Of a stretch of DNA of 7,566 bases, positions 2,713 to 3,086 are shown one piece after another (position 1 is the stretch's first letter; each line of letters begins with the position of its first letter). Position numbers and translations under genes: made by a program. The DNA lies in IMG/VR virus record IMGVR_UViG_2681813004_000023; one strand, 5' to 3'. Source of the DNA: a virus (lineage: Duplodnaviria > Heunggongvirae > Uroviricota > Caudoviricetes). A model generated the notes under the pieces. It worked only from the letters and a program-made list of their open reading frames with translations, had not been told where the DNA came from and did not search any database.

Positions 2713-2901
2713 ATGGAAACGTTATTACCAAACGTTAATACGTCTGAAGGTTGTTTTGATATTGGTGTTCTGCTCAGTAACCGGGAGTTTACGGAAGATG
2801 CCATTAAGATGAGAAAATATGAACCTTATCTTCTCAATGATAATTCCATACTTTCCAGAATTGCCCTTCTTGAACTTGGTATTATCGGAGAACAGCAATG
2901 A
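2713..2901 (+). CDS. Small hypothetical protein (62 aa), first gene of a coupled pair
   Basis: GAGGA at 2701-2705, 7 nt before ATG 2713. The track ORF 2608..2901 has an upstream extension without an RBS. Its stop overlaps the next start as ATGA (2898-2901). AT-rich relative to flanking DNA. Confidence 0.5.
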   Translation: METLLPNVNTSEGCFDIGVLLSNREFTEDAIKMRKYEPYLLNDNSILSRIALLELGIIGEQQ

Positions 2902-3086
2902 CTTCAGCATTTGCACTGGTGATGACCGTTTTTCTTATAACGGGTGAGCCACAAAATGTGATTACCGGAATTTATGACAGTAAGTCATCCTGCATTCAGG
3001 TAAGGGACGAACAAAAAATCCCCGGTGAATGCCTCCCGTTAAAAAAAGTATCGCTGAACCTGAATAACGAAATACCGGCTGGATAA
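2898..3086 (+). CDS. Small hypothetical protein (62 aa) with N-terminal hydrophobic segment (possible membrane anchor or signal-like helix)
   Basis: ORF track 2898..3086; GGAGA about 7 nt upstream; N-terminus MTSAFALVMTVFLITG is hydrophobic, followed by a polar, two-cysteine C-terminal part. Downstream hairpin GGCTGG(3078-3083)/CCAGCC(3092-3097). Confidence 0.45.
   Translation: MTSAFALVMTVFLITGEPQNVITGIYDSKSSCIQVRDEQKIPGECLPLKKVSLNLNNEIPAG

Follow-up and report, generated by a model that had tools for sequence, protein, structure and literature searches.

A common allelic form of the prophage gene pair dicB-ydfD in Escherichia coli

Results

Gene content and layout of the locus

Two overlapping open reading frames of 62 codons each, at 2713–3086 of the window (the whole 7,566-nucleotide stretch of DNA analyzed here), represent a real and already known gene pair, a common allelic form of dicB-ydfD. 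The features of the window, with supporting profile matches, are as follows.

1–360, minus strand: ydaT-like gene (partial)
357–572, minus strand: cro/dicC-like regulator, divergently transcribed (PF14549, P22_Cro, E 2.9e-16)
622–1338, plus strand: immunity repressor, counterpart of DicA/cI, with its start at ATG 622 or ATG 664 (HTH_3, E 2e-16; Peptidase_S24, E 9.5e-17)
1611–1766, plus strand: ydfA
1768–1896, plus strand: ydfB
1926–2144, plus strand: ydfC
2145–2712, plus strand: long untranslated region (568 nt) between ydfC and dicB, ∼99% identical to K-12 Qin
2487–2538, plus strand: DicF small RNA (Rfam RF00039, 76.7 bits against a gathering threshold of 48, E 4.3e-16, full model length)
2701–2705, plus strand: Shine-Dalgarno sequence GAGGA of dicB, 7 nt before the ATG
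2713–2901, plus strand: dicB (62 amino acids; Pfam and NCBIfam profiles, RefSeq relatives, BLASTP)
2887–2890, plus strand: Shine-Dalgarno sequence GGAG of ydfD, inside the 3′ end of dicB and 7 nt before the ATG
2898–2901, plus strand: ATGA start/stop overlap of dicB and the ydfD-type gene (read from the sequence, as are the two Shine-Dalgarno sequences)
2898–3086, plus strand: ydfD-like gene (62 amino acids, DUF1482 protein; Pfam and PHROG profiles, BLASTP)
3182–5927, plus strand: YdfE-type exonuclease gene with an Rv2179c-like 3′–5′ exonuclease domain (PF16473, E 3.5e-67)
6000–6251, plus strand: excisionase gene, xis (PF06806, E 1.6e-31)
6271/6286–7566, plus strand: tyrosine integrase gene, int (Arm-DNA-bind_2 and Phage_integrase domains)

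This arrangement follows the published layout of the dicBF operon (PMC5069750), and the order in K-12 Qin is the same (ydfABC-dicF-dicB-ydfD-ydfE), including a 4-nt overlap of dicB and ydfD. The ydfA, ydfB, and ydfC genes are the promoter-proximal genes of the operon, and were identified over 1611–2144 by PF07151 (DUF1391; E 8.8e-28), PHROGs 751, 2061, and 1744, and the RefSeq annotation of relatives and of K-12. An earlier note on this DNA, made from the sequence alone, had placed the pair downstream of a structured noncoding island and upstream of a nuclease gene, and both placements agree with the present map. Since the Rfam DicF match falls at 2487–2538, the island (2145–2712) is the long untranslated region of dicBF. 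The DicF sequence of the window, aligned with K-12 dicF, shows no difference from it, contains a terminator-like hairpin, and is followed by a T run at 2539–2543; a sub-threshold match to STnc100 extends over 2536–2745. The nuclease is the YdfE-type exonuclease, the reading frame of which is broken in the window by a tandem duplication of ∼274 nt (repeat D1/D2). In relatives, the exonuclease is a single 823-residue open reading frame, and a blastn comparison with one of them (L001) shows the duplicated block.

The immunity region upstream of the operon is divided between a regulator that also matched the DicC model NF007282 (E 3.2e-15, under the cut-off of that model) and a repressor that the DicA subfamily model matches over residues 3–80 only. 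The operon of the window stands under a LexA-like cleavable repressor, in contrast to the short DicA of K-12. At the other end of the window, xis and int (6000–7566) close the early-left arm.

Expression signals, base composition, and divergence from K-12

Each of the two open reading frames has its own Shine-Dalgarno sequence and the ATGA overlap lies at 2898–2901, all as the earlier note had it, indicating probable translational coupling of ydfD to dicB; the other descriptive statements of that note hold as well. These signals are shared among the ten alleles compared: the GAGGA of dicB is identical in all ten, and nine of them share the ATGA overlap, the tenth having GTGA instead. K-12-type alleles have AGGA where the window has the GGAG of ydfD. 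Scanning of the plus strand with consensus patterns detected neither a promoter-like site before dicB nor a terminator after ydfD, where a hairpin at 3076–3097 lacks a T run on that strand.

The pair is AT-rich relative to its neighbors, with a GC fraction of 0.38–0.385 across 2700–2999 compared to 0.47–0.55 in both flanks, and this observation had led to the suggestion of a moron-like insert. Comparison with K-12 points to a different origin of the low GC. The window is ∼99% identical to K-12 from 2140 to ∼2770, diverges sharply from approximately codon 20 of dicB to ∼3125, and is again highly similar just before the exonuclease gene (from ∼3125). The low GC therefore coincides with a divergent allele cassette (∼2770 to ∼3125), consistent with replacement of one allele by another rather than insertion of additional genes. 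The moron reading was rejected on these grounds, together with the lack of plus-strand promoter and terminator matches around the pair, the presence of the pair in every relative examined, and the fixed order of DicB, DUF1482 protein, exonuclease, Xis, and Int in the relatives examined; the pair is instead a fixed part of the early-left operon.

Identity of the two proteins

The product of the first open reading frame matched PF05358 (DicB) over residues 1–62 of 62 (E 3.7e-38, 129.5 bits against a cut-off of 27) and scored 111 bits with the NCBIfam DicB model NF049927, the cut-off of which is 100. At E ≤ 0.1, PF05358 was the only Pfam match, and no DNA-binding domain was detected. Aligned by BLASTP with K-12 DicB, the protein shows 38 identities in 62 positions (61%) with no gaps, and the differences fall mostly in the C-terminal part. 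The N termini read METLLPNVNTSEGCF in the window and MKTLLPNVNTSEGCF in K-12; residues 1–15 are the same apart from K2E, and L5 is kept. Columns conserved in the DicB family are likewise retained (G18, F26, D29-A30-I31, R34-K35, E37, I46, S48, and A51). The C-terminal two thirds are largely replaced: across codons 20–62, dS relative to K-12 is ∼1.2 and dN ∼0.5, and the C-terminal third is acidic (net charge −5) where that of K-12 DicB is basic (+3). Mutagenesis of K-12 DicB found the N-terminal ∼14 residues essential and the last 8 residues dispensable (PMC4967827); position 2 tolerates A, G, or R, while L5 is critical (PMC4967827). Because the essential N terminus is kept and the difference lies mostly in the C-terminal part, a MinC-dependent activity is likely conserved in the DicB of the window. 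Structure prediction, a check proposed by the earlier note, gave weak models: the AlphaFold2 model of DicB is a four-helix bundle of modest confidence (best pLDDT 70), while for the second protein only one of five models was confident (pLDDT 78), the rest being near 50.

The second open reading frame encodes a protein that matched PF07358 (DUF1482; E 2.8e-15; 56.4 bits, the cut-off being 25), with residues 4–61 aligned to positions 1–57 of the 57-position profile, and PHROG 1092 (E 1e-32); no NCBIfam model matched it. BLASTP against K-12 YdfD gave 30 identities in 62 positions (48%), again with no gaps. Features kept in the window allele are the hydrophobic N terminus, a GE(P/S) turn, the EQKIPG-C-P block, and the C-terminal EIPAG. 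In an alignment of 20 family members, C32 and C45 are invariant, and K-12 YdfD has both; K40, G43, and P47 are also invariant, and E38, Q39, and I41 are nearly so. RefSeq labels window-type proteins as “DUF1482 family protein” only, and K-12-type alleles as either “lysis protein YdfD” or “DUF1482 family protein”. A Foldseek search with the YdfD-type model against viral predicted structures returned nothing at E ≤ 0.001, the best match being an unnamed protein at 0.017. Profile searches of PDB sequences detected no relative of either protein. The statement that neither sequence was recognized is thus superseded, as both are named, annotated, and experimentally studied genes.

Coding potential and selection

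Both open reading frames are intact in all ten alleles compared, with DicB at 62 residues and the YdfD-type protein at 62–67, and the Shine-Dalgarno sequences and 4-nt overlap are kept throughout. Within the window-type group, Nei-Gojobori estimates of dN/dS were 0.06–0.18 for dicB and 0.25–0.34 for ydfD, and the excess of synonymous substitution was significant in both (Fisher p 7e-11 to 0.02). Both open reading frames are under purifying selection as proteins. The earlier note had named absence of such a synonymous bias as the observation that would count against its proposal; the bias is present in both genes (dN/dS 0.06–0.34 overall). Given these data, there is practically no chance that the open reading frames are chance or decayed frames of a cryptic prophage with no functional product. 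The break in the adjoining exonuclease gene might be taken in favor of such decay, since it suggests that the element itself may be decaying. However, open reading frame length, ribosome-binding sequences, and overlap are kept in ten of ten alleles, and ∼1,020 complete genomes, as well as INPHARED phage records, carry copies that are identical or nearly so; the substitution pattern rules out the reading.

Distribution and exchange of alleles

The allele pair is present in ∼1,020 of 5,426 complete E. coli genomes, where a genome was counted if it contained 80% or more of the 374 nt of the pair; 330 records reach an identity of 99% or higher. An index of public assemblies lists the exact 62-residue YdfD-type protein in 13,740 blocks. 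Loci that are 99.5% identical to positions 2100–3200 of the window by megablast carry RefSeq annotations of ydfC, dicB (“cell division inhibition protein DicB”), “DUF1482 family protein”, and exonuclease. In all six places listed, DicB and the DUF1482 protein come first, next the exonuclease or the slot for it, and then an excisionase-type gene, and an integrase gene is called at five of the six; immunity regions and attachment sites vary among these places. Within the INPHARED phage collection, PPompW prophages and records of Stx2a-converting phages carry the pair at 99.7% identity, and more distant alleles are carried by phages such as mEp460, Tritos, and HannyBb. None of the complete E. coli genomes matches the whole 7.5 kb above ∼96% identity, and the window is a mosaic of modules, each of which is common by itself. 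Exchange also extends to the pair, in that a window-type DicB is paired with a K-12-like YdfD at one locus (L007), while intragenic chimeras (P0168, P0069, and P0087) are known for each of the two genes.

Activities known from K-12 and proposed mechanism

The dicBF operon is driven from dicBp under control of the prophage repressor (PMC10448788). K-12 DicB binds MinC, and the complex is directed to ZipA at midcell, where the Z ring is depolymerized and filamentation results (PMC6832061). Expression of K-12 dicBF lowers lambda plating ∼100-fold and also inhibits phage 434; these are the two ManYZ-dependent phages tested, and both use ManYZ for DNA entry (PMC6832061). The operon additionally inhibits mannose uptake, and exclusion of lambda and 434 as well as the block of mannose uptake all need the DicB–MinC interaction (PMC6832061). 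Over-expressed K-12 YdfD lyses E. coli (PMC8835842). Cells that also express DicB or SulA do not lyse (PMC8835842, citing Masuda 2016), so that the lysis needs division to be active. IspG is bound by YdfD, and either over-expression of ispG or the IspG product relieves lysis (PMC8835842). This reported mechanism comes from a single study with over-expressed protein. The suggestions of a kil-like or exclusion function and of a toxin were therefore right in kind, the former for the first gene, since DicB is functionally analogous to Kil of lambda and excludes lambda and 434 (PMC6832061), and the latter for the second, since its K-12 family member lyses cells (PMC8835842).

The window alleles themselves show what the genes are, their place in the operon, the signals for coupling, purifying selection, and a wide distribution, while for their activities we infer from the K-12 homologues, which are 61% and 48% identical. 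The two open reading frames are dicB and a ydfD-type gene, the last two small genes of dicBF in the early-left arm of an E. coli lambdoid prophage resembling Qin/Kim, and they very probably act as follows. When the repressor is lifted, transcription would proceed from upstream of ydfA, downstream of the repressor gene, through ydfABC and the DicF region, and RNA polymerase would have to pass the DicF terminator hairpin and T run (∼2500–2543) to reach dicB. The ydfD gene would be translated by ribosomes terminating and restarting at the ATGA, or loading at its own GGAG. By homology to K-12, DicB–MinC would be drawn to ZipA at midcell and dismantle the FtsZ ring, leading to filamentation, and the same DicB–MinC interaction would disable the mannose permease ManYZ, so that lambda-like phages could not bring in their DNA. 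Again by homology, growing and dividing cells would be lysed by the YdfD-type protein, through IspG binding and depletion of the isoprenoid carrier in the envelope. As lysis does not occur during a division block, DicB made from the same message would delay or mask killing by YdfD.

Protection of the cell by DicB raises the question of whether the pair is a classical type II-like toxin–antitoxin system, in which a soluble product of the first gene binds and neutralizes the toxin encoded by the second and autoregulates the pair. In favor are the small size of the two genes, their overlap, and their translational coupling, and K-12 DicB co-expression does stop YdfD lysis (PMC8835842), so that the neutralization proposed by the earlier note has a counterpart in the literature. 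However, DicB strongly inhibits growth on its own (PMC4967827, PMC5069750). The unrelated protein SulA likewise prevents YdfD lysis (PMC8835842), and protection therefore works through division arrest. The reassortment of dicB and ydfD alleles at L007 and the intragenic chimeras also argue against a co-evolving binding pair, and control lies with the prophage repressor rather than with a promoter/operator of the pair (PMC10448788). Neither toxin–antitoxin family searches nor a PADLOC scan matched DicB or the YdfD-type protein. A classical system of this type is very unlikely here and was rejected: cognate co-variation was contradicted by the reassorting alleles and by the substitution of SulA for DicB, the promoter scan found no promoter of the pair's own, and no DNA-binding antitoxin domain was detected.

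The location of the YdfD-type protein bears on the second half of the mechanism. Its N terminus has 15–16 uncharged hydrophobic residues (mean Kyte-Doolittle hydropathy of 2.04 over residues 1–15) with no flanking positive charge and with G-E-P next. The hydrophobic N terminus noted earlier is therefore real, while the membrane helix predicted from it is doubtful, being short and ambiguous: the 19-residue Kyte-Doolittle window scores 1.39, under the usual threshold of 1.6 for a membrane helix, and in the model with pLDDT 78, residues 5–12 are one of the beta strands in a small beta-beta-alpha-beta fold. The hydrophobic N terminus and the conserved cysteine pair could nonetheless point to a membrane or periplasmic location, and the IspG mechanism sits uneasily with both. 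In the corresponding alternative, the protein is not a cytoplasmic IspG inhibitor; it would instead act at or across the inner membrane, signal-anchored or secreted and with a disulfide, as a holin-like, phiX174 E-like, or exclusion factor. In its favor, Masuda in 2016 reportedly called the N terminus of YdfD a putative transmembrane domain. Retention of the hydrophobic stretch across alleles, followed by GE(P/S), is consistent with this alternative, as are the two invariant cysteines; YdfD cysteine mutants still bind IspG (PMC8835842), and the cysteines would therefore serve another purpose. Against it, the segment is short and without a positive n-region, the one confident AlphaFold2 model buries it as a beta strand, and pull-downs, in-cell FRET, and rescue by ispG over-expression or the IspG product all indicate a cytoplasmic target of the K-12 protein (PMC8835842). 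Taken together, a membrane-acting protein is improbable, and a cytoplasmic IspG-directed function remains the preferred reading for the YdfD-type protein.

Implications

The lead is closed in the sense that the pair is the dicB-ydfD end of dicBF, among the best-known toxic loci of cryptic prophages. Nearly all experiments have been done on K-12 alleles, and the window allele group occurs in approximately one fifth of complete E. coli genomes, including EHEC and ETEC prophages. The window allele differs strongly outside the essential N terminus of DicB, which bears on the generality of the MinC/ManYZ and IspG mechanisms. A functional divergence of the window pair from the K-12 pair is unlikely. 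Were it to have occurred, DicB of the window could have another partner, or exclude other phages, than by the MinC/ManYZ route, and the YdfD-type protein could have an envelope-synthesis target other than IspG, or act at the membrane. In that case, the sharp mosaic boundary in dicB and the reassorting alleles would represent a diversifying exchange of specificity modules between prophages. Finally, because the repressor is of the LexA-like cleavable type, the SOS response may have direct control over the filamentation and lysis functions of dicBF in strains that carry this prophage with its S24-domain repressor.

Comparison with known systems

Superinfection-exclusion proteins of the Sie type block DNA entry, as K-12 dicBF does via DicB (PMC6832061). 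DicB differs from them in acting indirectly via MinC, in being made only when the repressor is lifted rather than constitutively, and in having no PADLOC model.

The YdfD-type protein invites comparison with the small single-gene lysis proteins phiX174 E (target MraY), Q-beta A2 (MurA), and phage M Lys (MurJ), which, like YdfD, lyse growing or dividing cells only (PMC8835842); all of these proteins block the supply of envelope precursors and do not degrade the wall (PMC8835842). YdfD is distinguished by its reported target, IspG of the MEP pathway, which lies upstream of the undecaprenyl carrier, by the location of its gene on a tailed temperate phage, and by the absence of sequence similarity to the single-gene lysis proteins. 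In addition, tailed temperate phages normally encode a holin-endolysin cassette, the place of which would be outside the window.

Lambda Kil and DicB have no sequence relation (Pfam, E ≤ 0.1), and their likeness is functional and positional only: lambda Kil, Rac KilR, and DicB are each encoded between the immunity region and the recombination and int-xis genes. Lambda Kil is not known to require MinC. Lambda Kil and Rac KilR are small early-left proteins that block FtsZ ring assembly in a ZipA-linked manner (PMC3961180), as does DicB; DicB acts through MinC, whereas lambda Kil acts on FtsZ/ZipA (PMC3961180).

The closest relatives are the two genes of K-12 Qin/Kim. K-12 YdfD (b1576, PF07358) has 63 residues as compared to 62 in the window, and residues 18–37 and 46–56 are largely replaced between them; the two proteins nevertheless align without gaps, share the GEP turn and the two cysteines, and are both coupled to dicB. 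K-12 DicB (b1575, PF05358) differs from DicB of the window in overall sequence (61% identity), in C-terminal charge, and from codon 20 onward; like it, K-12 DicB has 62 residues, is encoded downstream of DicF, and overlaps ydfD by ATGA.

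Mosaic structure of the dicB–ydfD alleles

Comparison of the window with the K-12 Qin locus (L002) revealed an abrupt mosaic junction within dicB, at approximately codon 20. The window is ∼99% identical to K-12 on the 5′ side of this junction, while the remainder of dicB, together with ydfD, is strongly diverged (∼2770–3125; dS ∼1.2) and identity resumes ahead of the exonuclease gene. This sequence pattern points to an allele cassette swapped by recombination between lambdoid prophages. The dicB and ydfD alleles also reassort: comparison locus L007 (701–1089) pairs a window-type DicB with a K-12-like YdfD bearing a C-terminal extension of five residues. 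Three proteins are chimeras within one gene: a DicB (P0168), which is window-type in its N-terminal half but K-12-type in its C-terminal half, and two YdfD proteins (P0069 and P0087). The DUF1482 family member P0030 carries the NCBI name “YebW family protein,” which suggests that the YdfD family has a paralogue beyond the dicBF operon.

No complete E. coli genome exceeded ∼96% identity to the whole window (1–7566) over 92–100% of its length; each of its modules is common individually. A dicB–ydfD pair identical to that of the window is carried by prophages at the ompW site with a different integrase of 376 aa, as compared to the 426–431-aa window integrase with its Arm-DNA-bind_2 domain.

dicB leader and exonuclease gene

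A sub-threshold Rfam match to STnc100, a Salmonella sRNA family, was detected at 2536–2745 (+) (38.7 bits at E 8e-6; gathering score, 47), extending from the 3′ end of DicF into the first dicB codons. The 5′ leader of dicB may thus contain or form a structured element whose conservation extends to Salmonella prophages. A 97-codon ORF (2608–2901, +) with a GTG start at 2608 lies in the same frame as dicB, and the longer form is annotated in some phage records (L009, 605–889; L010, 596–889). This ORF echoes the title of a paper by Cam et al.

The YdfE-type exonuclease gene is split by a ∼274-nt tandem duplication:

3182–5927, YdfE-type exonuclease gene, split into two overlapping frames (3182–3937 and 3690–5927)
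3632–3816 / 3906–4090 and 3817–3905 / 4103–4191, duplication copies in the exonuclease gene

The two copies of the D1 repeat are 99% identical, and the neighbouring 89 nt are 83% identical. Relatives encode the exonuclease as one 823-aa ORF, in contrast to the two frames of the window. The duplication reflects either decay of the gene in the window's prophage or an assembly artefact.

Immunity repressor

The window encodes a repressor with a LexA-like domain:

622/664–1338, +, immunity repressor with HTH_3 and Peptidase_S24 (LexA-like, self-cleaving) domains

Given the Peptidase_S24 domain, the dicBF operon in the window's prophage may be directly responsive to RecA and the SOS response. In contrast, K-12 DicA (135 aa) has no domain besides the HTH, and its repression is lifted by the antirepressor Rem.
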